From: a virus
Taxonomy: Duplodnaviria; Heunggongvirae; Uroviricota; Caudoviricetes
Direction: 5' to 3' (one strand)
DNA length: 38,857 nucleotides
IMG/VR virus record: IMGVR_UViG_2636415906_000002
In this document: in pieces, positions 1 through 37,700 of the stretch
Position numbering within the stretch: the first letter of the stretch is position 1
Layout: every line of letters starts with the position of its first letter
Program-made: the position numbers and the translations under genes
Notes under the pieces: generated by a model
Database searches by the model: none
Seen by the model: only the letters and a program-made list of their open reading frames with translations
What the model was told of the DNA's origin: nothing

Positions 1-893
1 TTTAATACCTCTTTGTTTACTGGGGTTAATATCTGAGATGGTAGTTCTGAAAGATTCTCTTGTTCAAGTATATGTTGAAAGCTTTTATTCATCATTATGA
101 TGTTAAAAATCTCATTTACTATTAGTAGGTTGGTTTTTATGAATTTTGAGTTGTTATAAACAGATTTATGTTCAGCGATACTATTTTCATAAAGCTCAAT
201 CAACTCCTCTGCAGTCATCCTTTTTGATGGTTTGTGATAATAAAATCCGGCTGCTTTTGCACCTTTATTCCCAACTGTTCTTTGATTTAGAATGTGTTTT
301 ATCTTTATAATGTCCCGACTTTTTATTAATTTTTTATCATATGCTTCGGTAAGAATATCTTGTGCTTCCTCAGTTTCACATCTTGCAAATTGCACTGCGA
401 GATACAGAGGCAAATTACCCCGTTCGACTGCTGAGAGAAGTTTATGCTCTCCCTTATCAAGTAGCATATTAATACTGCTCACCCAGTTCGATGAATATCC
501 AGTAATCTCACTTATTTCGGAGTCTGAAAGTCCTCTGATTTTCATGTCTTTAATCACCTGTAATAACTCATTAGAACGTGGTCTTCTCCTTGCAATGTTT
601 TCAACTAAACTCATAACGTAAGCATCTTCTTCTGATACATCTCTTATAATTGCTGGAATAATAGTTTCACCTAATGCAACGAGAGCCTCTATTCTCCCTT
701 GACCACAAATTAAAGCATATTTGAAATCGCCTTCATCAATAGCTCTTACGCTTATTGGCTTGCTTAATCCTCTTTTTTTTATGCTTTCCTTTATTTCTTC
801 ATGCACTACCTTATTTCTTGTTCGTGGGTTAAGAAATTTTATTTTTGCAATCTCAATTTGAATTATTGGGAATTCATTTTTTTCAGGCAGCAT
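1..893 (-). CDS. ParB/RepB-like N-terminal nuclease-domain protein (partial; C-terminus beyond window start)
   Basis: Manual reverse-complement translation from ATG 893..891 (RBS GAGGGA upstream) stays open to the window edge (about 297 codons); N-terminus IQIEIAKIKFLNPRTRNKVVHEEIKESIKKRGLSKPISVRAIDEGDFKYALICGQGRIEALVALGETIIPAIIRDVSEEDAYVMSLVENIARR fits the ParB/Srx fold with a GQGR arginine motif; AT-rich; start overlaps stop of upstream recombinase by 11 nt. Absent from ORF track because it has no in-window stop. Confidence 0.55.
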   Translation of the reverse strand, partial: MLPEKNEFPIIQIEIAKIKFLNPRTRNKVVHEEIKESIKKRGLSKPISVRAIDEGDFKYALICGQGRIEALVALGETIIPAIIRDVSEEDAYVMSLVENIARRRPRSNELLQVIKDMKIRGLSDSEISEITGYSSNWVSSINMLLDKGEHKLLSAVERGNLPLYLAVQFARCETEEAQDILTEAYDKKLIKSRDIIKIKHILNQRTVGNKGAKAAGFYYHKPSKRMTAEELIELYENSIAEHKSVYNNSKFIKTNLLIVNEIFNIIMMNKSFQHILEQENLSELPSQILTPVNKEVL

Positions 894-2439
894 ATAGTTC
901 CCTCACTTTCATGCGAGTAATAATTTGTAGAAGTTTATCAAGATTATCAAATCTATAGAGATCTAATCGAATGTTGTTTGTTTCCGTCATGCACATTTTA
1001 TTATATTCGTTTTCAATCTTTGGTATGATATAAAAATCAAGAGGTGAAATATTTTGTGAATTCATTCGTATAACAATTGTTATGTCTGCTTTCTGTGAGT
1101 TATCAAACCGGACTTTCCATCTAAGTTTACCTGATTTCATATGTATGCATTTAGTAACAAGGACGGAAATTAAAAACTCATCATTGATGTAAAGCATTGG
1201 GGCATATTTATACTCGTCTATATGACAGTTACTTTTTAAAATTTCACCCTTAAAATCCTCAATTATCTCTGAGTAAAATGATCTTAGTGCTTCATTTATT
1301 TTGAGATAGCTGTAATCATGTTCTGGCTTATAACCAATCAAAGTATATGCTCTTAAAAGACCACCAAATCGGGTTCTATAAACAGAAGATGAAGGGCCTG
1401 TATCATCTTCATCAATGATAAAGCCTGATAGTTTTCCATTAGATTCTAATTTTTGTTTTAGTTTTTCTAATAGATCTTCATTAGTCAAATGAATGGATCG
1501 GAGCTGAATTATTTCTTGAGCTTTATTGTATTTTTTCTTTGAAATAATAGGTTTATATGCCTTGTCACATCTAACCCATTCATGTTTGGGGTTTTTTACA
1601 AGCCTACTTTTTAATTTAGATGAGGTTTTGTTATATATGTTGTTTCCAATATATTTTTCATTTGTCAAAATTTGATGTATTTTTGCACGAGTCCATAATG
1701 TTCCATTTTCTGCAGGTATGTTCTGTTCATTTAATCTCTCAGCAATAATGAATTCTGGGACGTTATTATCTATAAAGAGATCATATATTCTATTTACAAT
1801 TTTTATTTCATTTTTTGGTCCCGGAATTAATATTACCCTATCTGTTTGAATACTCTTTCTTTTGCGGAAACTCAATATTTCTTTAGCTATGCCATTTTCG
1901 TCTACTAAAAGACGTCTCAGCCCATAACCAGCCATACCGCCTTGATGATAACCAAGCTTTATTAAATTTACTTGCCCTATAAATACCTTTTCAGATAGAT
2001 TCCTGCTGTGATATGCAGCACTAGATCTTTTTATATTCAGTATAACAGAGGACTCTAAAGGGAAATCTTTAGTGGGTATAGGTTCGGAACAATATATAAG
2101 ATCTACACCATTTCTCTCAAATAGAAAGGAATAATATGCCGCTTCATCACTATTTTGAAAACGACCAAAACGGCTCACATCATAAAATAATACAGCCTGT
2201 ATATCTATTTTCTTTTGTTCTACATCGCTAAGTAACTGCTGCAAAGAATGCCTGCCTACGATACTGACTCCGCTCTTACCTGCATCATCGTAGGTATAAG
2301 CGATTTCCATATTGTTCTTTTCAGCATAATCTTTGATATATTCGGACTGATTATGTAAAGAATATTGCTGATGGTCGGTAGACATCCTCAAGTACTGCGC
2401 GACCCTAACTCTATGATTTTTGTCATTTTCGCTAGCCAT
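883..2439 (-). CDS. large serine recombinase (resolvase-type catalytic domain + recombinase domain)
   Basis: 518-aa ORF; N-terminal VAQYLRMSTDHQ catalytic-serine motif and DDAGKSG...R pattern of resolvase domain, then GYHQGGMAGYGLRR recombinase-domain signature; strongly AT-rich. Confidence 0.7.
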   Translation of the reverse strand: MASENDKNHRVRVAQYLRMSTDHQQYSLHNQSEYIKDYAEKNNMEIAYTYDDAGKSGVSIVGRHSLQQLLSDVEQKKIDIQAVLFYDVSRFGRFQNSDEAAYYSFLFERNGVDLIYCSEPIPTKDFPLESSVILNIKRSSAAYHSRNLSEKVFIGQVNLIKLGYHQGGMAGYGLRRLLVDENGIAKEILSFRKRKSIQTDRVILIPGPKNEIKIVNRIYDLFIDNNVPEFIIAERLNEQNIPAENGTLWTRAKIHQILTNEKYIGNNIYNKTSSKLKSRLVKNPKHEWVRCDKAYKPIISKKKYNKAQEIIQLRSIHLTNEDLLEKLKQKLESNGKLSGFIIDEDDTGPSSSVYRTRFGGLLRAYTLIGYKPEHDYSYLKINEALRSFYSEIIEDFKGEILKSNCHIDEYKYAPMLYINDEFLISVLVTKCIHMKSGKLRWKVRFDNSQKADITIVIRMNSQNISPLDFYIIPKIENEYNKMCMTETNNIRLDLYRFDNLDKLLQIITRMKVRELYAA

Positions 2440-2721: not shown

Positions 2722-3951
2722 TTATGCGGCAATAACTTTGCATTTTTGAGACGAAACATAGTCACTCCACCATTGCATGAGAACCACCCGTTCAGTGAGA
2801 TACTCTGCACGATTGTAGGCTGCAATTATTTCATCTTTCTTCGAGTGGGCAAGGGCGGCTTCTAAGACATCAGTCCTAAACTTGCCAGACTCCTCAGCAG
2901 CCGTTCTAGCAATGGATCGCATACCGTGAGCTACAAGCTCACCTCCGAAACCCATACGGATTATGGCCGCATTAGCTGTTTGTTCATGCATGTGATTGAG
3001 TGGAGCTTTGATACTGGGGAACACCCACTCTCTATGCCCGCTGATGACTTTCATTAAATCCAAAACTCGCAAAGCTTCTTTGCTCAGTGGAACTTTGTGA
3101 GGCTTCTTCATTTTCATAAACTCCGCCGGGATGTTCCACATGCCAGTTTCAATATCAATATCTGACCATCTTGTGCGAACAGCTTCACCTGGGCGAACCC
3201 ATGTGAGAAGTTGCCACTCAATCAGTAGCCTTGTTTCCAAACGGATAGAAGCATTGTTTAGAGCAACCAAGAAGCGAGGGAGTTCGGAAGGGGGTAATGC
3301 TGGCATATTCTGTTTTTTTGGCTTGCTGAACCGTTGCCCCAGGTTGTCTGCCGGGTTGAATTCTATGAGTTCTTCTGTTGCTGCATAGCGGAAAATTTCA
3401 TTCAGGCGGGATATGATGCGGCGAAGTGTTTCAAGGACACCTCGTTTTTCTATGGGTTCTAAATGCTGTTTAAGCATTTTAGGGCGAATCTCCTTAATTG
3501 GGGTATCACCCAATGTGGAAAAGATATTTCTCTCTAGGCTTCGCCAGATGTCGTTAGCATGATCTTGGGAGATGCCTGACGTTTTGACTTTCTCATCAAG
3601 CCACTTCTTGGCTACTGCTTGAAATGTATGTTCCGTGGCATCTTTCAGTGCATTGGCTTTTTGGTTGTTATGAACTTGGGGGTCTATACCATTTGTAAGC
3701 AACGACAAGTATTCATCACGTAAAGCTCGTGCCTTCGCAAGTGTAAGGTGAGGATAGGTTCCTAAGCTCACCTTAGTTCGCTTTTTGGTCACAGGCACTG
3801 CATATCTGAAATACCAATTTTTCTTCCCTCCCTTCGCCAGGGGAGCGATTCGCAACAGCAAACCATCGCCGTCAAAAAGGTTAACCTCTTTTTCGGCAGG
3901 TTTGGTGCTTTTGATTTCAGTGTCAGTGAGCTTCTTAGCGATTTTGGCCAT
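2722..3951 (-). CDS. tyrosine integrase, P4/CP4-57 IntA family
   Basis: ORF 2722..4032; probable true start ATG at 3951 giving MAKIAKKLTDTEIK...FDGDGLLLRI...WYFRY, the typical N-terminus of P4-family integrases; C-terminal catalytic region (GMRSIARTAAEESG...AYNRAEYL); sits directly downstream of an ssrA 3-prime-end copy and terminator. Confidence 0.85.
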   Translation of the reverse strand: MAKIAKKLTDTEIKSTKPAEKEVNLFDGDGLLLRIAPLAKGGKKNWYFRYAVPVTKKRTKVSLGTYPHLTLAKARALRDEYLSLLTNGIDPQVHNNQKANALKDATEHTFQAVAKKWLDEKVKTSGISQDHANDIWRSLERNIFSTLGDTPIKEIRPKMLKQHLEPIEKRGVLETLRRIISRLNEIFRYAATEELIEFNPADNLGQRFSKPKKQNMPALPPSELPRFLVALNNASIRLETRLLIEWQLLTWVRPGEAVRTRWSDIDIETGMWNIPAEFMKMKKPHKVPLSKEALRVLDLMKVISGHREWVFPSIKAPLNHMHEQTANAAIIRMGFGGELVAHGMRSIARTAAEESGKFRTDVLEAALAHSKKDEIIAAYNRAEYLTERVVLMQWWSDYVSSQKCKVIAA

Positions 3952-4049
3952 GTTTGGGACCCTCGATTTTAGGACCCATCTTCGTGGGTCCCATTCAGGG
4001 TGCCATAACTCGTAGTTCTCAGCAATTCTCACTAGACTACAATAGACGT

Positions 4050-4113: not shown

Positions 4114-4162
4114 TATTTGGTGGAGCTGGCGGGAGTTGAACCCGCGTCCGAAATTCCTACAT
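4114..4162. repeat. attL: 49-bp direct repeat (45 nt of ssrA 3-prime end + 4 nt), identical to 37794..37842
   Basis: TATTTGGTGGAGCTGGCGGGAGTTGAACCCGCGTCCGAAATTCCTACAT present at both positions; flanking bases diverge on both sides. Confidence 0.85.
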
Positions 4163-4247: not shown

Positions 4248-5294
4248 TTAATGTTCTGTCGCCAATCTGTCGCCATTGTAGGTCAACGAAGGTTGAGCCT
4301 TCCCTTTGTTTGTTACAATTTCATCAAAGATAGCTGGATTATTATCTTTCAGTAATCTTGCTAGTATAATGATTTGCCCAGACGAGCCATCATCCTTGAA
4401 TGAAAGGAAATTATCGGTAATATCAAGAATATCAATGGTAAATTTGAAGTAGGTTTCAATTGTATCGCCAAGTTCAATGCTGGACATGAAGTTAGTAATC
4501 ATTTCATATCCATCAAAGTATAAAGTTGCATGTTCATTTAACTCCATGGGAGTTAGGCAAAGCATTCGATTAAGTTCGGATAAGTGTTTTTCTATTGAAT
4601 GAAGAGATTGCATTTGACGGATTAAAACTTCGGCAAACTGAGAGCCACGATTAGATGAATGTATCTTCTCTAGGTTTTTTAGTATATCAACCCAGTGATT
4701 ATTTACTTCACGTATGTATTCTTTATCTGTATTTTTAGGCCGTCCCTTCTCTGGTGAGCTATTTATGAAAATATATCTATATAGATGTATTGGGTAGTTT
4801 ATTTTATAACTTATCTCTTTAGTACCATAATGACGTTCGCGTTTAATGGTTTTGTTAGGTAAATTGGTGAAATAATCAGTAACGAACTTTAGATGGCTAT
4901 AGTAGCTATCAGATAGATTCTTTTGCTTGGTTTCCTCAATTTGTCGGTTTGTTTGAACTGTGCGGTGTATGTTTGCTACGACAGCAACAAATGGTATGGA
5001 CAAAGAAAGTAAGGCGATAGGAAGCTTGCTAATTGCAATGAAATTATTAAAGCCCTCACTATCAAATTGAGGGGAATGTCCAAGCCAGGAAAATATACCA
5101 AAGTATATCGCTGAAAATACAGGAATCCTAAGTGATTGTTTAAATAAGTATTGACTTGTTAATGGCCTTTCATCCATGTTAAAGCCTTTTTTTGATACGC
5201 ATAGATATAATTCAAGGCATATATATAAAAAATATATTATGATAAGTAAGTACGATATCCATGGGTATTGTGGGATATAGTTATTAACAAGCAC
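4248..5294 (-). CDS. membrane-anchored protein of unknown function (att-proximal prophage cargo)
   Basis: 348-codon ORF with GTG at 5294 overlapping int stop by 11 nt (alternative ATG at 5177 gives 309 aa); 2-3 N-terminal hydrophobic helices then about 240-aa soluble domain with no motif I recognise; markedly AT-rich. Confidence 0.55.
   Translation of the reverse strand: MLVNNYIPQYPWISYLLIIIYFLYICLELYLCVSKKGFNMDERPLTSQYLFKQSLRIPVFSAIYFGIFSWLGHSPQFDSEGFNNFIAISKLPIALLSLSIPFVAVVANIHRTVQTNRQIEETKQKNLSDSYYSHLKFVTDYFTNLPNKTIKRERHYGTKEISYKINYPIHLYRYIFINSSPEKGRPKNTDKEYIREVNNHWVDILKNLEKIHSSNRGSQFAEVLIRQMQSLHSIEKHLSELNRMLCLTPMELNEHATLYFDGYEMITNFMSSIELGDTIETYFKFTIDILDITDNFLSFKDDGSSGQIIILARLLKDNNPAIFDEIVTNKGKAQPSLTYNGDRLATEH
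4256..4276. repeat. tandem CTGTCGCCA 9-mers (candidate integrase arm-type sites, P-arm side of attP)
   Basis: CTGTCGCCA at 4256..4264 and 4267..4275; same 9-mer recurs at 37730..37738 and inverted at 37702..37710 on the other side of the att core. Confidence 0.3.
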
Positions 5295-10006: not shown

Positions 10007-12417
10007 GCCATGCTGATATGAACAACTGCAGCGGCTTTAACAAGGTCGCCGCAGCATTCTCATGGAACAGCCCGAAAAAGGCCATTAACCCTTATCTGGA
10101 CCCGGCGGAAGTTGCGCCGGTTTCTGCGCTTTCAAACCTGATCACTCTGTACGCTACCGATAACGAGCAGGAACAACTGCGCCGCGAGGCACTGAGTGAT
10201 CAGGTCTGGGAGCGTTATTTCTTTAATGAATCCCGTGATCCTGTCCAACGCGAAATGGAGCAGGATAAGCTCATTAGCCGGGCAAAGATGGCGCATGAGC
10301 AGCAGCGTTTTAATCCAGACATGGTCATTCTGGCTGACGTCAACGCCCAGCCTTCCCATATCAGCAAGCCGCTGATGCAACGTATTGAATATTTCAGCAG
10401 CCTGGGCAGGCCAAAGGCTTATTCCCGCTATTTGCGTGAGACGATTAAGCCATGTCTGGAACGACTGGAGCATGTACGCGACAGCCAGCTATCTGCATCT
10501 TTTCGTTTTATGGCAAGCCATGAAGGGCTGGACGGTCTGCTGATCCTGCCTGAAATGAGTCAGGATCAGGTGAAACGCCTGTCTACCCTTGTCGCTGCGC
10601 ATATGAGCATGTGTCTTGATGCCGCTTGTGGTGATTTGTACGCCTCCGATGATGTTAAGCCAGAAGAAATCCGCAAGACATGGGAAAAGGTGGCTGCAGA
10701 AACCCTGCGACTGGATGTCATACCGCCTGCGTTTGAGCAACTCCGCCGGAAAAGAAACCGCCGCAAACCTGTGCCTTATGAACTCATTCCGGGTTCGCTG
10801 GCGCGTATGCTGTGCGCCGACTGGTGGTATCGGAAATTATGGAAGATGCGTTGCGAATGGCGGGAAGAGCAGTTGCGTGCTGTCTGCCTGGTCAGCAAAA
10901 AAGCATCTCCCTATGTCAGCTATGAAGCCGTGATGCATAAACGTGAGCAGCGCCGTAAGTCGCTGGAGTTTTTCCGTTCTCATGAACTGGTGAACGAAGA
11001 CGGCGACACGCTGAACATGGAGGATGTGGTAAACGCCAGCAGCAGCAACCCGGCGCATCGCCGCAACGAGATGATGGCCTGTGTTAAAGGCCTGGAGCTT
11101 ATCGCGGAAATGCGTGGTGACTGCGCCGTTTTCTACACCATCACCTGTCCGTCACGTTTCCATTCCACGCTAAATAACGGCAGGCCAAACCCGACCTGGA
11201 CAAACGCGACGGTAAGACAAAGCAGCGATTATCTGGTCGGCATGTTTGCTGCATTTCGTAAGGCTATGCACAAAGCCGGGTTGCGCTGGTATGGCGTGCG
11301 GGTGGCTGAGCCGCATCATGACGGCACAGTTCACTGGCACCTGTTGTGTTTCATGCGCAAAAAAGACCGCCGCGCCATTACTGCATTGTTGCGTAAGTTT
11401 GCCATCCGAGAAGACCGCGAGGAGCTGGGCAATAACACGGGGCCACGCTTTAAGTCTGAGCTGATAAACCCGCGCAAAGGAACGCCGACAAGCTACATTG
11501 CGAAATATATCAGTAAGAATATTGACGGGCGTGGTCTGGCTGGCGAGATCAGTAAGGAAACGGGTAAATCCCTGCGTGATAACGCTGAATACGTTAATGC
11601 CTGGGCGTCTCTGCATCGTGTTCAGCAATTCCGCTTCTTTGGCATTCCGGGGCGTCAGGCTTACCGTGAACTGCGATTGCTGGCTGGTCAGGCGGCAAGG
11701 CAACAGGGTGACAAAAAAGCAGGTGCGCCGGTACTGGATAACCCGCGCCTTGATGCCATCCTGGCTGCTGCTGATGCTGGTTGTTTTGCCACCTACATCA
11801 TGAAGCAGGGCGGCGTACTGGTTCCCCGCAAATATCACCTCATCAGAACCGCTTATGAAATCAACGAAGAGCCAACCGCCTATGGCGATCACGGTATTCG
11901 TATTTATGGCATCTGGTCACCCATTGCAGAGGGCAAGATCTGCACTCATGCAGTGAAGTGGAAAATGGTTCGTAAGGCCGTTGACGTTCAGGAGGCGGCA
12001 GCCGACCAGGGCGCTTGCGCCCCTTGGACTCGTGGCAATAACTGTCCCCTTGCTGAAAATTTGAACCAACAGGAGAAAGATAAATCAGCTGATGGGGACC
12101 CCAGAACGGACATTACCAGCATGGATGACAAGGAGTTGCACGATTACCTGCACAGTATGAGCAAAAAAGAGCGCCGGGAACTGGCAGCAAGGTTATGCCT
12201 GGTGAAACCGAAACGGCGTAAAGACTACAAACAGCGAATTACAGACCATCAGCGACTGCAGCTCGTGTATGAGCTGAAGTCCAGAGGATTTGATGGCAGC
12301 GAGAAAGAGGTCGATTTACTCCTTCGCGGAGGCAGTATTCCGTCAGGAGCAGGCCTGCGTATCTTCTATCGGAACCAGCGTTTGCAGGAAGATGATCAGT
12401 GGCGGAACCTGTATTAA
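10003..12417 (+). CDS. A: replication initiation protein A (rolling-circle nickase, P2 gpA family)
   Basis: 804-aa protein in the P2 A position, translationally coupled to dam (ATGA overlap). Confidence 0.9.
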
Positions 12418-12510
12418 TTACGCGGGTTAACAATTCGTGCTCTTAATAATACCAGGCATATCAGGCTGATGAACGTAAAAAAATCGTTTTACATCAGTAA
12501 GATTATTATA

Positions 12511-12530
12511 TACTGTAAATATAAACAGTG
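12511..12530. promoter_or_regulatory. LexA operator (SOS box) TACTGTAAATATAAACAGTG overlapping a candidate promoter (-35 TTTACA 12488..12493)
   Basis: perfect CTGT-N8-ACAG with AT-rich spacer, about 40 nt upstream of the ATG at 12572. Confidence 0.65.
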
Positions 12531-12571
12531 GTTATGCATACAGCATTGCGTGTGGTGTCATAGGAGGAAAG

Positions 12572-12760
12572 ATGCAGGACTATTTTTTGGAGTCTTTGAA
12601 GCTCCAGCGCATTGATTTTTTTCTTAAGCTTGTAGCGGCTAGTGAGTGTAGTGATGAAGAGAAGGGGCTGGCTCTGCAGTGGGTTTCTGAATTGACTGAT
12701 GAACTCATGGCAAAAATCAGAACCCACGAATACAACCGCTCAATGGATGTCATCAGCTGA
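12572..12760 (+). CDS. Tum-like antirepressor N-terminal segment (62 aa)
   Basis: RBS AGGAGGA; first gene downstream of the LexA box; overlaps the upstream extension of the DinI-like ORF in the +1 frame. Confidence 0.45.
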   Translation: MQDYFLESLKLQRIDFFLKLVAASECSDEEKGLALQWVSELTDELMAKIRTHEYNRSMDVIS

Positions 12761-12770
12761 GGTGACTTTT

Positions 12771-13004
12771 ATGCGCATTGAAATAATGATCGATAAAGAG
12801 CAGAAGATTAGCCAGTCTACCCTGGACGCCCTTGAATCCGAGCTTTACCGCAATCTGCGCCCCCTGTATCCCAAAACGGTAATTCGCATTCGCAAAGGTA
12901 GCTCTAACGGTGTGGAACTAACCGGACTGCAACTGGACGAAGAAAGAAAACAAGTGATGAAAATTATGCAGAAGGTGTGGGAAGACGACAGCTGGCTGCA
13001 TTAA
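12771..13004 (+). CDS. DinI-like protein (equivalent to the C-terminal half of a 186 Tum-type antirepressor)
   Basis: MRIEIMIDKEQKISQSTLDALESELYRNLRPLYPKTVIRIRKGSSNGVELTGLQLDEERKQVMKIMQKVWEDDSWLH resembles DinI; ATG 12771. Confidence 0.7.
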   Translation: MRIEIMIDKEQKISQSTLDALESELYRNLRPLYPKTVIRIRKGSSNGVELTGLQLDEERKQVMKIMQKVWEDDSWLH

Positions 13005-13138
13005 GAAACGTTGCTGGCGTCTGAACTTGCTTCTGGCGTCAGCAAGGTTGAACAACGAGCCCTTGCGAGGCGTTAGCTCTGTAGTGCATGTCTATGCCGC
13101 ATGAGATCGCATGATCGTTTGAGGATCGTTTTTGCTAA

Positions 13139-13164
13139 GGCCCGCCAGAACTGGCGGGCTTTTG
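13139..13164 (+). terminator. intrinsic terminator after the Tum-like module
   Basis: GCCCGCCAG-AA-CTGGCGGGC followed by TTTTG. Confidence 0.5.
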
Positions 13165-13208
13165 CGTAGATCATGCAGGTGCATGAAAACCACTACATAA
13201 AGCGGGCA

Positions 13209-13227
13209 GGCGTGGCGGGGATACGAG
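13209..13227. other. cos-like cohesive-end site GGCGTGGCGGGGATACGAG
   Basis: matches from memory the first 13 nt of the 186-type cos (GGCGTGGCGGGGA...), at the expected position before the portal-terminase block. Confidence 0.4.
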
Positions 13228-13321
13228 CGCGCGCTGAGATATGAATTAGTAATAGTTGTTTTAATCTATCTTGTTAAGTAAATTAACGATCAACCCATGG
13301 TCATGTCTAGGGAATGATGAT

Positions 13322-15103
13322 ATGAATTTTGATGCAACTCCTTTAAATATTAAAAATATACTTTCTGTTAAACAGCGTTATGTGATTCCACGGAATCAAC
13401 GAGAATTTAGTTGGGAAAAGTTACAACTTGATGAATTGTGGCAAGACATAATAAGAAATATAAAATTAAATCCCAAAGGGGATGACTTTGAATTCAATGA
13501 GTACTTTATTGGTACAATTGTATTGTCTGGTGCTGACAGTGATAATGTTTTGGAGATTGTTGATGGTCAGCAGCGTTTCAGTGTTATTACAATTCTACTT
13601 TCTTTAATTTCTAGGTTTTTAAGAAAAAATGGGAAGGCCGAATTTGCTGATGATATTTTTAAAACATATATCGTAACCGCAAATCAGACGTTCAATAGAA
13701 ATTCTGTCAGTTCTAATGGCGACTCAGTAGTTGAGAAGCTTTCTAAAAATAGTGACAGGGCTTTTTTTAAACTAAAATTCCAAGATAGAGTTGAGCATAA
13801 AGCTGATGTGACTTGCGATGAAGATAAAAAGATTCAATATGCTGGGTTGTATTTAAGTAGAAAGCTAGGAAAGAAAGCATTATGTTCTTCTTTGTTGCGT
13901 GACGGTGCAGTAAAGTATAAAAAGGAAGATTACCTTTTTTGCTTGAATGCCGTTTACAATATGGTTACTAATTATCTTAAATTAGTAAGGATATCAGTAG
14001 GCAAGGAAGATGACGCGTATGATATTTTCGAGGTTTTGAATGCAAGGGGAATAAACTTAAGCTCCCTTGATCTGATTAAAAATAAAGTTTTCCAGAGTTG
14101 TATTGAAACATATCCAATAGATAAAGCCAAAGAGAAATGGGATTATATTACTAATTGCATCGAAGCTAGAGATAGTAACGCTACAATGGTTGATTATGTC
14201 AGGTGTTGGTGGCTTTCTAAGTTTAATTATATAGGTGAAGATCAACTATACCGTGCCTTTAAAAGAGAGATAAATGATGGTGTTTATGGATTAACTGCAA
14301 TTTCATTTTTGGATGAGTTGCATAAAGATGTTGATTTATATTGTAAGATAATTTCTCCAGATATTGATGATTGGCCTCAACAGGATCAGCGAGATATTTA
14401 CAATTCACTTAAAGCATTTGAAATATTCAATGTTTCAATCCCTCGCCCATTCATTTTGTCATTATTAAGAAAAAGAAGAGATAAATCTAGAAGTCTTTCG
14501 CAAAAAAGTTTAATAGAGTGTCTAATGTGTTTAGAGAGATTCCACTTTAGATTTAATGCTATTTGCCGATTAAGACCCTCTGGCATAGACGCCAAGTATT
14601 CAGTATTAGCAGTAAGCCTTGATAAAGCTACTAATAAACGTAGTATCGAATCAACCATTAGTGAAGCAATAGCATACTTTTCTGCGAAAAGTCCAAATGA
14701 AAAAGTATTCAATGAGGCATTTGTTAAAAATTTATTTTATACAAATAAAAAAGCCTCCCAGCGTAAGCTCATAATGTATATTTTTGAACGTTTTGAAAAG
14801 AAATTGCGAGGAACTAATGAGTTAAAATTAGACTTAGTTTCACTCGAGCATATTGGTGCACAAAGTAGTTTTGACTCAGAGGTTGTTGGATTAATGGGGA
14901 ATCTTCTTCCTCTTTGCTTTACTTTGAATGAATCATGTAAAAATGATAGCTTAAGTAAAAAAATAAACGAGTATAAGAAGTCAAACCTTAAGGTGGTTAA
15001 TGAGTTTATTGATGAGTATTCATCTAACGATGAGGAATGGAATGCCCAAAAAGTTCAGATTAGAACATTATCTATGTCAGCGAAGGCCTATAATATAATC
15101 TAA
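13322..15103 (+). CDS. DUF262/DUF1524 two-domain nuclease, GmrSD/BrxU-like type IV restriction-type defence protein
   Basis: 593 aa from ATG 13322; N-terminal DGQQR motif (13562..13576) typical of DUF262 ParB-like NTPase domain; C-terminal LEHIGAQ ... GNLLPL ... NESCKN His-Me finger-like motif (E509/H510 at 14846..14851); AT-rich; own terminators on both sides. Confidence 0.7.
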   Translation: MNFDATPLNIKNILSVKQRYVIPRNQREFSWEKLQLDELWQDIIRNIKLNPKGDDFEFNEYFIGTIVLSGADSDNVLEIVDGQQRFSVITILLSLISRFLRKNGKAEFADDIFKTYIVTANQTFNRNSVSSNGDSVVEKLSKNSDRAFFKLKFQDRVEHKADVTCDEDKKIQYAGLYLSRKLGKKALCSSLLRDGAVKYKKEDYLFCLNAVYNMVTNYLKLVRISVGKEDDAYDIFEVLNARGINLSSLDLIKNKVFQSCIETYPIDKAKEKWDYITNCIEARDSNATMVDYVRCWWLSKFNYIGEDQLYRAFKREINDGVYGLTAISFLDELHKDVDLYCKIISPDIDDWPQQDQRDIYNSLKAFEIFNVSIPRPFILSLLRKRRDKSRSLSQKSLIECLMCLERFHFRFNAICRLRPSGIDAKYSVLAVSLDKATNKRSIESTISEAIAYFSAKSPNEKVFNEAFVKNLFYTNKKASQRKLIMYIFERFEKKLRGTNELKLDLVSLEHIGAQSSFDSEVVGLMGNLLPLCFTLNESCKNDSLSKKINEYKKSNLKVVNEFIDEYSSNDEEWNAQKVQIRTLSMSAKAYNII

Positions 15104-15111
15104 TATATATT

Positions 15112-15138
15112 GGGCGCTTATGTTAAGCGCCTTGTTTC
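15112..15138. terminator. bidirectional intrinsic terminator between the convergent cargo gene and portal gene
   Basis: GGCGCTTA-TGT-TAAGCGCC hairpin followed by TTGTTTC. Confidence 0.5.
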
Positions 15139-15148
15139 ATAATCATTT

Positions 15149-16183
15149 TTAACAGTTTAAGGCATAAGTTTTAAAGTTAACTACTTTCTCACCAAGCCAG
15201 TGATTTAGTTCCTTTAGTCGTTTCTGCAATGGTATTAACTCATTACGAACAAAAACGAGACTGGCCTTCTCCACATCCCCAAACCCCCCAACATTATTCG
15301 GCAAAATTCCCATCATCTGCGGCGGTACGCGGTGTGCAGCCATCATGTCGTCCCGGCTCACGTTCTTGATGTTCAGAAATTCATCTTTCGCTGCGACTTC
15401 TGACAACGGGATGATCTGAAGCCCGTCCTTTTTGCCGTTAGGCGAGTACATAAACAGGTTGCGGAAGTTGCCAGGGCCTTTGGCGCTTTTCATCGCGTTG
15501 CGGAGGTTGTTCACATCTTCCTGGTTCTGCGCGGCGTCGGTCATATACATGATGAAGCCTGCATGACTGCCGTTAATGTAATACTTGCGGCGGAACAGCG
15601 TGGCAGACTCGTTGAGCAGGGCGGATGGAATAGCAGAAAGATAACCGGGCAGGCCGTAGATCTCCTGGTTGATGTCCGGTTCCATCAGATGAAAGATGCT
15701 GCCTTTCGTGAACTGATATGGCTGCGTGGTCATACCGTATTGCACAAACCAGTAGGTATCCAGGTCTAACCCGCGTCGGGTGTATTTTGCCAGGGCAGGT
15801 TCAAGGGCGATAACTTCACCGAAGCGGTTCGTGCGTTTCTCCAGGTAGGCGTTACCAAATACCAGATAGTCCTGCACAAAACGCGAAAAAGCCTGCTGGC
15901 TGAGCAGCGGATGAGGGATGTAGGTGCTGGTCAGAATGTTGCACTTTACTGCAATCGGGGAACTATGATGAACGGCAGCGCGGAAGGTGCGCGCCAGTCC
16001 GTCAAAGCTGACGGGCGGCTCATACCAGCGGTCCATCTGTACGCATTCCACATAATCCAGCAGTTCTCGGCGGTCCAGAACAGGAACGGGATCGCCGAAG
16101 CTGAATGCTTCGGCTGTAGTTTGACTTTTAAGCTGGATCTGTTTCGTCGCCGCAGCGCGGTTCTTCTTACTCTTTCCCATCAA
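15149..16183 (-). CDS. Q: portal protein
   Basis: 344 aa; P2 gpQ position and size, overlaps terminase stop. Confidence 0.9.
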   Translation of the reverse strand: MMGKSKKNRAAATKQIQLKSQTTAEAFSFGDPVPVLDRRELLDYVECVQMDRWYEPPVSFDGLARTFRAAVHHSSPIAVKCNILTSTYIPHPLLSQQAFSRFVQDYLVFGNAYLEKRTNRFGEVIALEPALAKYTRRGLDLDTYWFVQYGMTTQPYQFTKGSIFHLMEPDINQEIYGLPGYLSAIPSALLNESATLFRRKYYINGSHAGFIMYMTDAAQNQEDVNNLRNAMKSAKGPGNFRNLFMYSPNGKKDGLQIIPLSEVAAKDEFLNIKNVSRDDMMAAHRVPPQMMGILPNNVGGFGDVEKASLVFVRNELIPLQKRLKELNHWLGEKVVNFKTYALNC

Positions 16184-26391: not shown

Positions 26392-27746
26392 GCACAAAAT
26401 TTTATACCCTGCTGACGGATATTGGCGCGGCGAAACTTGCCAGCGCCGCCGCGCTCGGTGTGCCGCTAAAAATTACCCATATGGCGGTGGGCGATGGCGG
26501 TGGAGTATTGCCAACGCCGGACGCAAAGCAGACGGCACTGGTAAATGAGAAACGCCGGGCTGCGCTGAATATGCTTTATATCGACCCGCAGAACAGCAGC
26601 CAGATTATTGCCGAACAGGTGATCCCTGAAAACGAGGGCGGTTGGTGGATACGTGAAGTGGGCTTGTTTGATGAGTCCGGGGCATTGATTGCCGTGGGCA
26701 ACTGCCCGGAAAGCTATAAGCCGCAACTGGCTGAAGGTAGCGGGCGCACTCAGACCGTGCGCATGGTGCTGATTACCAGCAGCACGGACAATATCACCCT
26801 GAAAATCGACCCTGCTGTAGTGCTGGCAACCCGCAAGTATGTGGATGACAAGGCACTGGAGCTGAAGGTGTACGCGGATGATCAGATGGCAAAACATCTT
26901 GCCGCACCGGACCCGCATTCACAGTACGCGCCAAAAGCCAGCCCGACATTTACCGGAACCCCCAAAGCGCCAACGCCAGCGGCGGGGAATAATACCACGC
27001 AGGTTGCGACCACTGCGTTTGTACAGGCGGCACTGACGGCCCTTATTAATGGTGCGCCAGCCACGCTGGACACGCTGAAAGAAATAGCCGCAGCCATTAA
27101 CAATGATCCGAATTTCAGTACCACCATTAACAATGCGCTGGCACTAAAAGCACCGTTGTCGAGTCCGGCACTCACCGGAACGCCAACAGCCCCCACGGCG
27201 GCGCAGTCGGTCAACAATACACAGATTGCCACTACGGCTTTTGTGAAATCGGCGATTGCAGGAATGGTGGGTTCTGCACCTGCTGCACTGGATACACTGA
27301 ACGAACTGGCGGCGGCACTGGGGAATGATCCGAACTTTGCCACGACAATGCTTAATGCGCTGGCAGGTAAACAACCGCTGGACAATACGCTTACCAATTT
27401 GAGTGGAAAGGATGTAGCTGGTCTTCTCACATACCTTGGTTTAAGAGCAAGCGGGCAGTACACCGATAATTTGTTATTTACAGGTCCTGATGGTCTTAAG
27501 ATTCAGGTGTTTCGCCGGACGCTCGCAAATTTGACTACTGTTGGTGTAGTAAATTCTGTGCCAGTGACTTTCCCTGTCCCGTTCCCTGTTAATTGCTGGG
27601 GCGTTTTTTCTACCAAATTAACATGGGTTCAGATAACTAACTCATGCGAGTGGGTAAGCAATACAGGATTTACCGCTCAGGTCATGATGAATATTGCTGT
27701 AAATACAAACACCTCAGACGCTATGTTTTTAGCTATAGGATATTAA
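26388..27746 (+). CDS. H: tail fibre protein: constant N-region (residues 1..350) + currently expressed variable C-terminus
   Basis: 452 aa; two about 70-aa tail-fibre repeats (26943..27155, 27165..27374); invertase crossover site inside the gene at codon 350. Confidence 0.85.
   Translation: MSTKFYTLLTDIGAAKLASAAALGVPLKITHMAVGDGGGVLPTPDAKQTALVNEKRRAALNMLYIDPQNSSQIIAEQVIPENEGGWWIREVGLFDESGALIAVGNCPESYKPQLAEGSGRTQTVRMVLITSSTDNITLKIDPAVVLATRKYVDDKALELKVYADDQMAKHLAAPDPHSQYAPKASPTFTGTPKAPTPAAGNNTTQVATTAFVQAALTALINGAPATLDTLKEIAAAINNDPNFSTTINNALALKAPLSSPALTGTPTAPTAAQSVNNTQIATTAFVKSAIAGMVGSAPAALDTLNELAAALGNDPNFATTMLNALAGKQPLDNTLTNLSGKDVAGLLTYLGLRASGQYTDNLLFTGPDGLKIQVFRRTLANLTTVGVVNSVPVTFPVPFPVNCWGVFSTKLTWVQITNSCEWVSNTGFTAQVMMNIAVNTNTSDAMFLAIGY
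27424..27449. repeat. invertase crossover site 1 (hix/gix-like): TTCTCACATACC-TT-GGTTTAAGAGCA
   Basis: 26-bp imperfect palindrome inside H; core dinucleotide TT at 27436..27437. Confidence 0.5.
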
Positions 27747-27747
27747 T

Positions 27748-28188
27748 ATGAATCGTTTTGTGTTCAGTCCATCTGAGTCCCGTTTTTATGCCATCGAGTG
27801 GCAGGCTGATTATGTTGATAATAATTGTTGGCCACATGATGCCATTAACGTTAGTGACAGCATTTATTATGAGTTTTCCGGCACTCCCCCTACAGGTAAG
27901 CAACTTATAACTTTAAATAACATGCCAGCATGGGGTGATATTCCTCCACCTACACGAGAAGAATTAATTGTCGCTGCTGATGTGGAGAAGCAAAAAAGAA
28001 TAGATTTAGCCAATGATTACATGAACGGTAAGCAATGGCCTGGTAAAGCAGCTATTGGTCGTCTGAAAGGTGAGGAACTGGCACAATATAATTTGTGGCT
28101 GGATTATCTGGACGCACTGGAGCTGGTCGATACCGCCAGTGCGCCAGATATTGAATGGCCTACGCCTCCGGCAGTTCAGGCCAGATGA
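27748..28188 (+). CDS. G: tail fibre assembly chaperone
   Basis: 146 aa directly after H. Confidence 0.8.
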   Translation: MNRFVFSPSESRFYAIEWQADYVDNNCWPHDAINVSDSIYYEFSGTPPTGKQLITLNNMPAWGDIPPPTREELIVAADVEKQKRIDLANDYMNGKQWPGKAAIGRLKGEELAQYNLWLDYLDALELVDTASAPDIEWPTPPAVQAR

Positions 28189-28762
28189 CATCTGGCGCGG
28201 TGCTGGTATCAGTTGCCGTCACCGCGTCAATGTAATCCAGTACAGCGTTAAGGCTGGTTGTTTCTGCCTGCGTCAGTTTACGTCCGGCCTGCAATTTCAG
28301 CTGAATCAGACTGATTGAAGCCATTGCAGTATCAATCAGTGACTGGCGCTGTGCTTCTGCTGCATCTACTGCGGCGCTATGCTGTGCTTCGGTATCCGTC
28401 ACCCATTTCTCACCATCCCATTTATCGTATGGCGTTAACGGGGCGATAGTGGTTGTATTATCAGGGTAATCACCCGGAGCTGTGATTTCTTTTGATTCTC
28501 CTGTTTCGGTGCTAAAGACGATTTCACCGCGATGGTCTGGCACATATTCCCATGAGTTAAAATCTACAGATCGGCAGATTGCATAACCAGCTTTGTATGT
28601 GCCAGGGGCATCTAAACAGGAATATGCAGGGATACCGACACCAACGGCAAGATATTCAGTTGATGTGGAAATATATTCCCGTGTTTCGCCATCATAGTTA
28701 TAGACGGTAATATTCCCCGCCTTTGTAGCAATAAACTCGCTATTTAATACAGCGTTATCCAT
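28160..28762 (-). CDS. alternative tail fibre assembly chaperone (inverted cassette)
   Basis: 200 aa on minus strand, convergent with G, coupled TAATG to the alternative fibre cassette. Confidence 0.7.
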   Translation of the reverse strand: MDNAVLNSEFIATKAGNITVYNYDGETREYISTSTEYLAVGVGIPAYSCLDAPGTYKAGYAICRSVDFNSWEYVPDHRGEIVFSTETGESKEITAPGDYPDNTTTIAPLTPYDKWDGEKWVTDTEAQHSAAVDAAEAQRQSLIDTAMASISLIQLKLQAGRKLTQAETTSLNAVLDYIDAVTATDTSTAPDVIWPELPEA

Positions 28763-29304
28763 TATGCAGCCCTCACGATATAGTTAAATGCAATATTCCG
28801 TGGACGGGTTTCATTTATCCCATATGCTGTTGTTCTCTGATTCCCGACAAAATATCCATTTGGATTAGAAGATACAGAATAATCATCAAAATCAAGTGGG
28901 CTATCAGCACCCGGCGTCAGGCTTGCAATATATCCTCTTCCCATAACTTCTGATGCTGGTATTTCTTTTGTACGATAATCACTAACTCTGAAGAGCTGCC
29001 CTTGGTGGGTGTGTGATTCCACTCCTCCATTCTGAAGACTTAGCAAGGCACGTACAGCATCAATACCACGCCCGTCATCCCAGCCACGAATAAACTCACC
29101 ACGTAAATCAGGCAATTTATTTGTCGGATAAGCCTTTGCCAGTTCCGGGTATTCTTCAGCAGAAAAAGCGGCACCGTTGCATTTCAGCCAGCCTGTTGGC
29201 GGAGTGGCTGAAGGCCACGGAACAGGCACCCCAACCGGTAATGCAGAGCCTTCTCCCAAACCAACGTTTAAGAAAATGCAGAGGTAACAGCTAACTGGCA
29301 TCAT
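28762..29304 (-). CDS. alternative tail-fibre C-terminal cassette (promoterless; fused to H codons 1..350 only after inversion)
   Basis: minus-strand ORF passing through crossover site 2 in the same codon phase as H at site 1; conserved fibre C-terminal motifs PVGVPVPWP...GW..CNG...YP.L...RGEFIRGWDDGRG. Confidence 0.65.
   Translation of the reverse strand: MMPVSCYLCIFLNVGLGEGSALPVGVPVPWPSATPPTGWLKCNGAAFSAEEYPELAKAYPTNKLPDLRGEFIRGWDDGRGIDAVRALLSLQNGGVESHTHQGQLFRVSDYRTKEIPASEVMGRGYIASLTPGADSPLDFDDYSVSSNPNGYFVGNQRTTAYGINETRPRNIAFNYIVRAA
29251..29276. repeat. invertase crossover site 2 (hix-like): TTCTCCCAAACC-AA-CGTTTAAGAAAA
   Basis: 26-bp imperfect palindrome; core AA is the reverse complement of site-1 core TT, i.e. 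inverted configuration. Confidence 0.5.
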
Positions 29305-29331
29305 CTCCGGTTTTTATTCAGGGGGATGATC

Positions 29332-29898
29332 ATGCTTATTGGCTATGTACGCGTGTCAACAAATGACCAGAACACCGATTTGCAACGCAATGCACTGAAC
29401 TGTGCGGGATGTGAGCGGATTTTTGAGGATAAAATCAGTGGCACCAAGTCCGACAGACCGGGGCTGAAAAAGCTGCTCAGGACACTATCGGCAGGAGACA
29501 CGCTGGTTGTCTGGAAGCTGGACAGACTGGGGCGCAGTATGCGGCATCTTGTTACGCTGATAGAAGAGCTGCGCCAGCGTGGCGTGAATTTCCGAAGCCT
29601 GACTGACAGTATTGATACCAGCACCCCAATGGGCCGTTTCTTTTTTCATGTCATGGGTGCCCTGGCTGAAATGGAACGCGAACTGATAGTTGAACGTACC
29701 AGGGCGGGGCTGGCTGCAGCTCGTGCTAAAGGCAGAGTAGGTGGACGCCGTCCTAAGTTGACCAGCGAACAGTGGTCACAGATTGGGCGTTTACTCGAGG
29801 CCGGAGAATCAAGACAGCGTATTGCACTGATTTTTGATGTAGGCGTTTCTACCATTTATCGAAAATTTCCGGCAAATAAGAACAATAAATCTCCCTGA
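29332..29898 (+). CDS. DNA invertase, Gin/Cin/Pin/Hin-family serine recombinase
   Basis: MLIGYVRVSTNDQNTDLQRNAL...DTLVVWKLDRLGRS...MGRFFFHVMGALAEMERELIVERT - near-identical architecture to Gin/Hin from memory; catalytic Ser in VRVSTNDQ. Confidence 0.9.
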   Translation: MLIGYVRVSTNDQNTDLQRNALNCAGCERIFEDKISGTKSDRPGLKKLLRTLSAGDTLVVWKLDRLGRSMRHLVTLIEELRQRGVNFRSLTDSIDTSTPMGRFFFHVMGALAEMERELIVERTRAGLAAARAKGRVGGRRPKLTSEQWSQIGRLLEAGESRQRIALIFDVGVSTIYRKFPANKNNKSP

Positions 29899-29946
29899 AT
29901 CAGCTTTATTTTGATTATCCCTGAAAGCAGACAAATACCGTCATTT

Positions 29947-29964
29947 TGTGTGAATAACGGTACA
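29947..29964. promoter_or_regulatory. Ogr/B-type late-promoter activator site TGT-N12-ACA (pF)
   Basis: TGTGTGAATAACGGTACA upstream of FI. Confidence 0.5.
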
Positions 29965-30040
29965 ACTGCGCTTAGCTGTTTGTCAGGCACAATCACTTCA
30001 ACATAGGGTGAAGCCTAATCCAATCAGGAGGTTCGCCACT

Positions 30041-31213: not shown

Positions 31214-31222
31214 GGGGACAAC

Positions 31223-31738: not shown

Positions 31739-31792
31739 TGTATCTGAACGGCGCGGGATACCGCGCCAGAACCCAATTTACAGGACAGCAAA

Positions 31793-32095: not shown

Positions 32096-32229
32096 CGGTT
32101 GACGATCTGGTGGCAGATATCGCCACCATTTTTCACTGGCCGCCATCCGTTACTGACGTTATGCCGCTGACCGAAGTGCTGGAATGGCGGTATAAAGCGA
32201 TTCAGAGAAGCGGGGCCAACGATGAGTGA
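31793..32229 (+). CDS. E: E+E' fusion by programmed -1 ribosomal frameshift at T_TTT_TTG (32050..32056)
   Basis: slippery heptamer in phase; -1 frame stays open to TGA at 32227..32229, overlapping T start. Confidence 0.6.
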
Positions 32230-36878: not shown

Positions 36879-36946
36879 AGTGTTCTCAATATTGATATTT
36901 TGTGTATCATTACAATGATTCTGATAGCAAAGGTAGGGATCTGGAT

Positions 36947-37165: not shown

Positions 37166-37172
37166 GAAAGAG

Positions 37173-37674: not shown

Positions 37675-37700
37675 GTGAAACCTCTTTGCATGATTTCAAG

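Follow-up and report, generated by a model that had tools for sequence, protein, structure and literature searches.

Introduction

HEC-06 is a validated single-gene defence that is reported to block T4 (bioRxiv 10.1101/2024.01.29.577857; bioRxiv 10.1101/2025.02.28.640651), and its defence is abolished by mutation of either its DGQQR motif (Q79A, R80A) or its EH motif (E471A, H472A) (bioRxiv 10.1101/2024.01.29.577857). T-even phages are blocked by HEC-06_Bact, a protein of only 22% identity to HEC-06, whereas T4-GT7, with unmodified cytosine, is not (bioRxiv 10.1101/2025.02.28.640651). The interval between gpA and gpQ of P2-like phages is an established defence reservoir, and the tabulated contents of this hotspot already include "DinI + DUF262/DUF1524" arrangements (Rousset et al. 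2022, PMC9122126). The entries WP_000422658/WP_094658700 in that tabulation resemble the gene described here only by arrangement and by the identical flanking WP_001154434 and WP_001217575. GmrSD-family cargo of this kind is in this sense catalogued already and nothing out of the ordinary for a phage.

The present work concerns a DUF262-DUF1524 gene beside the cos site of a P2-family prophage contained in a stretch of 38,857 nucleotides (the window). A preliminary description, made from the sequence alone, had proposed a GmrSD/BrxU-like nuclease carried as single-gene cargo between cos and the portal gene.

Results

The prophage and the arrangement of the locus

The host element is apparently a complete Fels-2-type (P2-family) E. 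coli prophage of 33.6 kb, integrated at ssrA. The possibility of a defective prophage was considered and rejected, as the window copy has all late genes and 49-bp att repeats at its ends. The FDAARGOS_1287 copy has recombined with another prophage; the window copy agrees with CH4793 on the right. The features of the locus are as follows.

13077..13083, no strand: A-side cargo slot junction, empty in this prophage (homology break in L008, L009)
13084..13240, plus strand: cos island, a conserved piece of phage backbone with a variable cargo slot on either side (shared with prophages that carry other cargo)
13139..13166, plus strand: DinI/tum operon terminator hairpin, backbone and not cargo (-23.4 kcal/mol, z -4.3)
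13209..13227, plus strand: 19-nt cos-like cohesive-end sequence GGCGTGGCGGGGATACGAG (15/19 match to the mapped 186 cos, flanks aligned)
13241..15171, plus strand: AT-rich cargo module in the portal-side slot, replacing the native cos-to-Q spacer, tQ included
13256..13284, plus strand: candidate weak promoter TTGTTT-N17-TAAATT (inferred; conservation between orthologues)
13322..15103, plus strand: CDS of the GmrSD-family (HEC-06/DndI-like) 593-aa protein (ORF list, PGAP start, Pfam, PADLOC)
15112..15132, no strand: G+C-rich hairpin between convergent genes, folding on both strands (-13.0 and -11.9 kcal/mol, z about -3.5)
15149..16183, minus strand: portal gene, the Q homologue (ORF list, PGAP, homology)

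The cos-like site named in the preliminary description is a predicted cos by homology: the region is 100% identical to Fels-2, the left-flank motif common to P2 and 186 is conserved, and many IMG/VR P2-like loci contain the same 19-mer. Prophages with other cargo are homologous over exactly 13084-13240/13248. Among the IMG/VR matches listed (114 unique sequences), positions -38 to -1 are highly conserved and those past +26 are at background, with 0 to +25 preset by the search pattern. The portal stop at 15149 lies 1921 bp past cos, where P2 has a spacing of 167 bp and 186 one of 176 bp.

The gene is said in the preliminary description to be flanked by its own terminators, and this holds at one end only. 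The downstream hairpin (15112-15132) is likely a module-borne bidirectional terminator. The upstream hairpin (13139-13166) was tried as part of the cargo and rejected, since it sits in the conserved backbone island; its positions are conserved across P2-like loci, and in 186 a terminator, t95b, is annotated on the upstream side of cos.

The gene and its composition

The open reading frame spans 13271..15103 on the plus strand, and the ATG at 13322, which is the PGAP start, gives a protein of 593 aa. The start lies 95 bp past the P2/186-type cos sequence, and the gene is convergent with the portal gene, as described earlier. The module (13241-15171) holds this single open reading frame and has no room for a partner gene. 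The AT-richness also noted earlier is evident in the G+C content of the gene (32.4%, with GC3 27%), compared with 56% in the late genes; the stretch 13240-15148 as a whole is 32.3% G+C, and the last ~10 portal codons (15149-15180) are AT-rich and differ with the cargo. The dN/dS of 0.05 against the Salmonella orthologue shows that the gene is under strong purifying selection.

Expression may come from a weak promoter within the module. A scan for the sigma-70 consensus upstream of the gene returned nothing at threshold, the TTGTTT-N17-TAAATT candidate scoring below it, but the TTG and TA..T elements of this candidate are kept in position in the orthologous modules of Salmonella, Klebsiella and IMG/VR.

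Two cargo slots around cos

Comparison across P2-like prophages, which the preliminary description had proposed, shows that the contents of the locus vary. In two relatives (L008, L009) homology breaks between window positions 13076 and 13084/13086, where 0.8-1.3 kb of other genes are inserted on the A side. On the portal side, alignment with four empty-site relatives of the same cos type (L057, L101, L121, L077) ends at 13234, and homology to prophages with other cargo resumes at 15172-15180. In a non-random sample of at least 120 IMG/VR P2-like loci, portal-side cargo was present in 46/92 loci and in 20/24 of those with this cos type, among the matches listed. The hotspot thus consists of two slots parted by a conserved cos island of ~157 bp, a small refinement of the known picture, and recombination bounded by the cos island and the 3' end of the portal gene probably brought about the exchange of the cassette.

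Fels-2 carries AbiU in the portal-side slot; this gene was considered as a homologue of the present one and rejected, no relation being found. Elsewhere the slot holds a retron RT-Toprim, LmuB, a fused type II RM, bSEFIR, PD-T7-1, PDC-S49, a PtuA-like ATPase or a TIR protein. The cargo gene itself lies between gpA and gpQ beside cos, in a variable position and with atypical G+C, as hotspot genes do. It had been assigned earlier to the P2 variable locus where old and tin reside, and its placement on the portal side of cos had been called unusual. The first statement is accurate for the gpA-gpQ variable region but not for the side, since old and tin are found across cos, on its A side; the second is true by comparison with P2 and 186, whereas the portal side is the usual slot in Fels-2-type phages.

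Distribution of the gene

A query match was found in 1285 of 5426 complete E. coli genomes, mostly to the flanks only, and the cargo gene occupies this locus in 17 of the 5426, in agreement with its earlier classification as single-gene cargo. The identical protein occurs on 292 contigs. Orthologues occur in E. coli, Salmonella, Klebsiella, Cronobacter, Enterobacter and Serratia, those in Salmonella and Klebsiella prophages being 70-91% identical and in the same slot; more distant homologues (41-51% identical) are solo genes, in chromosomes as well as on an IncFII plasmid, and have no dnd, ssp or RM neighbours. The gene is thus accessory and mobile. Among the deposited sequences searched it is known from prophages only: a DNA search and tblastn of deposited phage genomes gave no close homologue, and the only tblastn matches were ~27% identical, in Listeria phages.

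Domains and motifs of the 593-aa protein

The architecture and motifs of the protein are those that the preliminary description had read from the sequence, down to the residue numbers.

13349..14092, plus strand: DUF262 / GmrSD_N ParB-like NTPase domain, aa 10-257 (Pfam PF03235, 4e-32)
13562-13576, plus strand: DGQQR motif, residues 81-85 (invariant in a 48-sequence alignment)
14696..15076, plus strand: DUF1524 / GmrSD_C His-Me (HNH) nuclease domain, aa 459-585 (Pfam PF07510, 3e-9)
14846-14851, 14900-14902 and 14927-14929, plus strand: nuclease motif residues E509-H510, N527 and N536

Both domain matches exceed their gathering cut-offs (112 bits against 33 for PF03235, and 37 bits against 23 for PF07510), and the protein is accordingly a member of the GmrSD (DUF262-DUF1524) superfamily. 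D81-R85, E509, H510, N527 and N536 are all invariant in the alignment, where identity to the window protein ranges from 37 to 91%. In the AF2 model of the whole protein (pLDDT 86) the nuclease region forms strands at 506-510 and 528-532 followed by a helix at 533-539, and the two domains are joined by an all-helical linker. NCBIfam profiles gave no meaningful match to the protein, and its PHROG match is phrog_21165, an unnamed family without assigned function.

Nearest relatives

The comparison to GmrSD and BrxU made in the preliminary description is correct at the level of the superfamily but misses the nearest relatives, which belong to the HEC-06/DndI ("Orf5") branch and are neither classical GmrSD nor BrxU. 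The top PADLOC model is HEC-06 (PDLC04154; 3.4e-73, 245 bits), which matches at full length (the 594-aa translation scanned aligns over residues 3-593, the profile of 569 positions over 6-563). The Orf5 model also matches at full length (7e-62, 208 bits), and Orf5 is DndI, as a DndI fragment gives 738 bits on PDLC02701; the DndI-proper model itself scores only 115 bits. The type IV model mREase_IV reaches 51 bits and covers only residues 8-268 of the same translation. Structure comparison comports with this placement: Foldseek ranks DndI (9jfl_A; E 3.9e-16, TM 0.68 over the whole chain, ~18% identity) first, SspE next and then BrxU (7p9k; TM 0.32, 13% identity). In a phmmer search of PDB sequences DndI is likewise the best solved-structure match (4.7e-9), with no BrxU chain among the matches, and there is no BREX context around the gene. 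Identity to HEC-06 is 27% over 121 N-terminal aa (E 7e-12), a comparison limited to 133 N-terminal residues because the supplement gives the first ~400 nt of the tested gene.

Discussion

The reading preferred here, with a probability of about 0.68, is that the gene encodes an enzyme of the HEC-06/DndI branch that serves as single-gene anti-phage cargo through NTP-gated restriction of hypermodified phage DNA. Its defence activity is argued by analogy with the HEC-06 mutational data, and its modification dependence by analogy with HEC-06, HEC-06_Bact and classical GmrSD. Such restriction is favoured because validated defences of the HEC-06 type need the same two motifs and because a homologue blocks T-even phages but not T4-GT7. 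Since DndI cuts unmodified DNA and is restrained by phosphorothioate (PT), modification dependence is an inference and not a rule of the family; and since the HEC-06 and DndI models score alike (245 and 208 bits) for systems of opposite logic, the choice of substrate cannot be read from family membership. In the proposed mechanism the lysogen would express the 593-aa protein from the weak promoter inside the module, and NTP binding and hydrolysis by the DUF262 domain would gate the DUF1524 nuclease, which would nick or cut incoming hypermodified phage DNA, for example that of T-even phages with its glucosyl-hmC or hmC. DNA of the host and the prophage, with Dam or Dcm methylation only, would be spared, and the lysogen, and so the prophage, would be protected. 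The preliminary description had remarked that the prophage encodes its own Dam methylase. This adds little: E. coli normally has a Dam methylase of its own, so that a resident enzyme must tolerate m6A-GATC with or without that of the prophage.

Three other explanations bear weighing against this one. The protein could be a modification-independent nuclease of the activation type, kept silent in the lysogen until a phage provides a trigger (one of its proteins, a depletion of nucleotides or free DNA ends, for example), possibly with abortive infection as the outcome. The DUF262 NTPase is indeed a regulatory switch in DndI and SspE, many of the cargo types in the slot are Abi-like (AbiU, retron, TIR, Lamassu), and an identity of just 27% to the N-terminal part of HEC-06 (121 residues) leaves room for another specificity. 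Nevertheless, among the characterised family members found in the literature there is no trigger-activated example: the solo enzymes are reported to be modification-dependent (classical GmrSD and BrxU, and HEC-06_Bact by phenotype), and the modification-restrained DndI and SspE work with a PT modification system, so this explanation is considered unlikely, though less so than the other two. A nuclease helping in cos cleavage and packaging, or acting as a selfish or homing element beside cos and the terminase genes, would have no defence role at all. It is suggested by the position of an HNH-type nuclease with 95 bp between it and cos and the portal gene, ~1 kb, between it and the terminase ATPase gene, and in some cos phages the terminase does require an HNH partner. 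This idea is very hard to sustain, however, when the gene is found at the locus in only 17 of the 1285 query-matching E. coli genomes, when the slot is empty in four IMG/VR relatives of the same cos type among the matches listed, and when P2 and 186 have there only a spacer of 167-176 bp and no gene; moreover, the architecture is that of a GmrSD-type defence enzyme and not of a small terminase-associated HNH protein.

The remaining explanation takes the similarity to DndI at face value: a DndI/SspE-like PT-sensing nuclease would attack PT-less DNA and need host dnd or ssp genes to spare self. DndI is the best solved structure by both sequence and fold, the Orf5 models match the full length, and P23 and Q26 of the PT-sensing patch (P-x-Y-Q) are conserved. 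The sensing tyrosine itself (Y25 in DndI, Y30 in SspE) is, however, Asn25 in the window protein, and at position 25 the 48 aligned sequences divide into 21 with N, 14 with F and 13 with Y. Neither the prophage nor the homologue neighbourhoods examined contain dnd or ssp genes, yet DndI is toxic without PT; dndBCD occurs in only 568 of 31,478 genomes, a rarity that is difficult to square with an identical protein on 292 contigs and orthologues in six genera. The DndI-proper model, finally, is outscored by HEC-06 (115 against 245 bits). PT sensing by this protein is therefore regarded as improbable.

A further, speculative reading, given rather little credence, joins the independent slots on either side of the cos island to an Asn25 subclade of the HEC-06/DndI branch with either a target other than glucosylated hmC or a new self/non-self logic. 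Under it, most cargo of Fels-2-type lineages would go to the outermost left end of the DNA as packaged, which would be feasible because terminase recognition would need essentially nothing past ~7 bp there, and the cassettes would come with substitutes for the portal terminator and even for the last ~10 portal codons.

If the preferred restriction enzyme is active, the prophage would give its E. coli host restriction of hypermodified (T-even-like) phages, which would further support the spread of defence genes by P2-family prophages in Enterobacteriaceae and bear on host range in phage therapy. Within the HEC-06/DndI branch, which has been little studied, the protein is a divergent member, and because this branch holds opposite self/non-self logics, the substrate preference of the protein would help to map how specificity evolved there. 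The two-slot layout around cos is of practical use in annotating cargo and in engineering P2-type phages or cosmids, and leaves the known picture unchanged.

Comparison with described systems

The cargo gene shares with known gpA-gpQ hotspot cargo (PMC9122126; PMC13586616) its interval, bounded by the replication gene A and the portal gene Q, its AT-richness, and its swappable, anti-phage character. In their treatment of the interval these sources present one hotspot, whereas here two slots flank a conserved cos island; the gene lies on the Q side of cos, like AbiU of Fels-2 and unlike old and tin of P2. Classical GmrSD (EcoCT/Eco94GmrSD), BrxU, SspE and the window protein have in common a DUF262 NTPase with DGQQR and a DUF1524 His-Me nuclease. 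GmrSD, BrxU and SspE restrict phage DNA, the first two in a modification-dependent manner; SspE (771 aa) works with sspABCD and matches the window protein in sequence only in its N-terminal ~100 residues. DndI (PDB 9JFL; PMC11662687) has the same three-part architecture, with DGQQR as its ATPase motif and a catalytic Asn in its HNH motif, but is co-transcribed with dndFGH beside dndBCDE, and it senses phosphorothioate via Y25 and cuts PT-free DNA, whereas the window protein has Asn25 and stands outside any dnd context. HEC-06 (PADLOC PDLC04154-04157) is, like the present protein, a single-gene DUF262-linker-DUF1524 protein of similar size with DGQQR and an EH nuclease motif; it differs in being found embedded in an E. 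coli Hma system and not in a prophage, in having EHICP where the window protein has EHIGA, and in having Phe instead of Asn at the PT-patch position.

Identity of the DUF262 gene and its protein

The DUF262 gene is a real, functional gene. Its open reading frame occupies 13271..15103 on the plus strand, and the RefSeq start, ATG 13322, which is supported by a GGGA Shine-Dalgarno-like sequence, gives a protein of 593 aa. The DUF262-DUF1524 architecture proposed for it in the preliminary description stands, as does the general interpretation offered there: in the HMM search both Pfam domains score over their curated cut-offs (GmrSD_N, PF03235, residues 10-257, 4e-32; GmrSD_C, PF07510, residues 459-585, 3e-9), and the DGQQR (81-85) and EH (509-510) motifs lie exactly where they had been numbered. 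Residues D81, G82, Q83, Q84, R85, E509, H510, N527 and N536 do not vary in an alignment of 48 sequences with 37-91% identity to the window protein. The gene has a G+C content of 32% (GC3 27%) compared to 56% in the late genes, and its dN/dS of 0.05 against the Salmonella orthologue indicates strong purifying selection. No site passed a sigma-70 scan of the upstream region; TTGTTT-N17-TAAATT at 13256-13284, of which the TTG and TA..T elements are kept in Salmonella, IMG/VR and Klebsiella modules (TTGCAA-N18-TATTAT in Klebsiella), is a candidate promoter proposed from sequence.

The same description had likened the protein to GmrSD and BrxU; membership of the GmrSD superfamily holds, but its nearest kin are HEC-06 and DndI. 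The best PADLOC model is that of HEC-06 (3.4e-73, 245 bits, full length), followed by "Orf5" (6.8e-62, 208 bits); SspE models and mREase_IV, the type IV model, match the N-terminal part only (55 and 51 bits). "Orf5" is DndI: PDLC02701, the model of DndI proper, gives 738 bits for a 457-residue DndI fragment taken from the PDB alignment, and only 115 bits for the window protein. DndI is also the best solved relative by sequence (PDB 9JFL, 4.7e-9), the SspE match being confined to the first ~100 residues. An AlphaFold2 model from the 48-sequence alignment has a mean pLDDT of 86, and Foldseek against the PDB places DndI first (TM 0.68, whole chain), followed by SspE (0.43) and BrxU (0.32). The PADLOC scores, the match to 9JFL and the Foldseek ranking thus place the protein in the HEC-06/DndI branch of the superfamily; classical GmrSD and BrxU are not close relatives.

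The prophage and its cos region

The window is a segment of an E. coli chromosome, matching strain CH4793 at 100% identity in the queried region 12900-15300 and at 99.9% in 27000-38857. It holds a 33.6-kb P2-family prophage whose early and late gene sets are complete, and the features at its ends are as follows.

883-2439, minus strand: serine recombinase (Resolvase and Recombinase domains), in AT-rich DNA left of the prophage att repeat
2722-4032, minus strand: tyrosine integrase, in AT-rich DNA left of the prophage att repeat
4114-4162 and 37794-37842: perfect 49-bp direct repeat bounding the prophage and consisting of the ssrA 3' end
4248-5294, minus strand: AT-rich ORF between att repeat and prophage integrase, its first start giving 348 aa (RefSeq, 309 aa)
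37192-37674, minus strand: 160-aa ORF with ogr on one side and the ssrA att repeat on the other (RefSeq, BRCT domain protein)
37798-38160, minus strand: tmRNA

Because the bounding repeat equals the ssrA 3' end, the prophage is integrated at the tmRNA gene. The serine recombinase and tyrosine integrase probably belong to a second integrative element, in tandem at ssrA; this left flank differs from CH4793, where glaH comes after the prophage. The 4248-5294 ORF, which has no Pfam match and a weak PADLOC match to "2TM effector" (8e-5), occupies what has been described in P2-like phages as a minor cargo site between integrase and att, and the BRCT ORF may be another accessory cargo piece at the prophage end. 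In the 28960-29530 region a small recombinase (RefSeq "recombinase family protein") accompanies tail-fibre and assembly genes that point in opposite directions, an arrangement resembling the invertible segments for host range of the Mu Gin / P1 Cin type. In E. coli FDAARGOS_1287 (locus L001, 33600-38401) the same prophage, with an identical DUF262 gene, breaks off after the tail-fibre genes, where baseplate genes from another, oppositely oriented prophage follow, which makes this copy recombinant or defective.

The 19-mer at 13209-13227 is assigned as cos by homology, since the cos regions of the prophage and Fels-2 show 100% identity, the 19-mer agrees with the mapped 186 cos at 15/19 positions, and P2 and 186 both have the left-flank motif TGCAT.AAAACC....AAGCGGGC. 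The distance from cos to the portal stop is 1921 bp, versus 167 bp in P2 and 176 bp in 186.

Two cargo slots around cos

Homology to E. coli prophages with other cargo covers exactly 12401-13076 and 13084-13240 and then resumes from ~15172-15180; these breaks define two cargo slots, split by a conserved ~157-bp island (13084-13240) with the DinI-operon terminator and cos. The slot on the side of replication gene A (13077-13083), just after the DinI gene, is empty in the window; in relatives it is taken up by an HNH protein, by a ComF/ShosT-like pair or by two hypothetical genes. Across 114 unique sequences, the columns around cos are highly conserved at -38 to -1 and drop to background right after +26, where the search pattern ends, an asymmetry that explains the tolerance of replacement on the portal side. 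Relatives with an empty site carry a G+C-rich cos-portal spacer of 154-176 bp with its own terminator, and since none of its sequence is present in the window, the cassette replaced the native spacer. The cassette brought with it a hairpin (15112-15132) stable on both strands, and extends into the last ~10 codons of the portal gene (15149-15180, minus strand). These codons are AT-rich and differ in sequence among prophages with different cargo; the recombination junction thus appears to fall within the portal gene, whose C-termini vary with the cargo.

The portal-side position had initially been regarded as unusual, which is true only in comparison to P2 and 186. A scan of IMG/VR for the cos core, a non-random and incomplete sample, listed at least 120 loci, 92 of them with both cos and portal gene. 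Among the matches listed, cos and portal gene are at least 300 bp apart in 46/92, all 46 inserts differ from one another in sequence, and portal-side cargo tracks cos type.

Portal-side cargo by cos type, among the IMG/VR matches listed
...GATACGAG (window, Fels-2): 20/24 loci
...GATAGCAT: 14/20 loci
...AAAGCAT (186 type): 4/11 loci
...AAAGCAC (P2 type): 4/26 loci

In Fels-2 the slot holds a 565-aa gene that is AbiU (375 bits) and unrelated to the DUF262 gene; E. coli relatives whose flanks match those in the window have a TIR protein and partner, or a DUF4145 protein. Among the matches listed, PADLOC models match 8 of the 10 largest portal-side cargo proteins of other loci (retron RT-Toprim, LmuB, fused type II RM, PDC-S49, PDC-M01A/PtuA-like ATPase, bSEFIR, PD-T7-1 and, weakly at 31 bits, a PifA-like protein), and nearly all cargo ORFs, the DUF262 gene alike, are on the plus strand, convergent with the portal gene. 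The two-slot anatomy and lineage bias, drawn from a limited sample, are the only addition to what is known, and a modest one.

Mode of action

HEC-06 is a single-gene defence that is lost when Q79 or R80 (DGQQR) or E471 or H472 (EH) is mutated (Payne et al., bioRxiv 10.1101/2024.01.29.577857), and it blocks T4 according to a later metagenomic study (bioRxiv 10.1101/2025.02.28.640651). By analogy, the window protein would be an autonomous, NTP-gated His-Me nuclease restricting hypermodified incoming DNA. DndI works in the opposite way, targeting DNA without phosphorothioate (PT): it uses Y25 to sense PT, nicks DNA that lacks PT, and is toxic in its absence (PMC11662687). That the window protein acts in the DndI mode is argued against by its Asn25, which aligns with DndI Y25 and SspE Y30, and by the fact that no dnd or ssp genes are found in the prophage or adjoining any homologue examined. 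Moreover, dndBCD occurs in only 568 of 31,478 genomes (literature count), whereas the identical protein is present on 292 contigs, and prophages of Salmonella and Klebsiella have orthologues of 70-91% identity in the corresponding slot.

An autonomous nuclease acting on hypermodified DNA is favoured because of the HEC-06 literature, these points against the DndI mode, and the homologues of 41-51% identity, which are solo genes on Aeromonas and Enterobacter chromosomes and an E. coli IncFII plasmid. That the protein is a defence nuclease of the HEC-06/DndI-branch family is assigned a probability of about 0.85; modification dependence is only slightly favoured. The main reservation about this reading is how far the protein stands from those assayed, with an identity to HEC-06 of 27% over 121 recoverable residues.

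The plasmid homologue (47% identical; contig L135, 7001-8794), which has an AcrVA2-like ORF and a ParE/RelB pair a few genes away, shows that the family travels on plasmids too. In the Salmonella prophage with the 91% orthologue (L130, 3705-5749) the DinI gene is separated from the orthologue by genes for a C5 DNA methylase (PF00145) and a 285-aa protein, which apparently occupy the A-side slot; this methylase alongside the orthologue suggests that the nuclease tolerates at least its m5C pattern.

Relation to known systems

The cos-adjacent gpA-gpQ hotspot was defined in 18,150 E. coli loci (Rousset et al. 2022, PMC9122126), and a 2026 survey covering 1511 P2-like prophages again names the GpA-GpQ interval as main hotspot (PMC13586616); the searched passages of these papers contain no split between the two sides of cos. 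The table of Rousset et al. includes "hypothetical + DinI + DUF262/DUF1524" arrangements that share flanking proteins WP_001154434 and WP_001217575 with the window. The terms DUF262 and GmrSD are absent from their main text, the N-terminal sequence of the window protein was not found in the text-format supplements, some of them incomplete, and, as far as these parts of the paper go, such a gene was not assayed. The DUF262 gene is an ordinary, well-supported case: a known prophage hotspot here holds a new and fairly divergent representative of an already known defence family.
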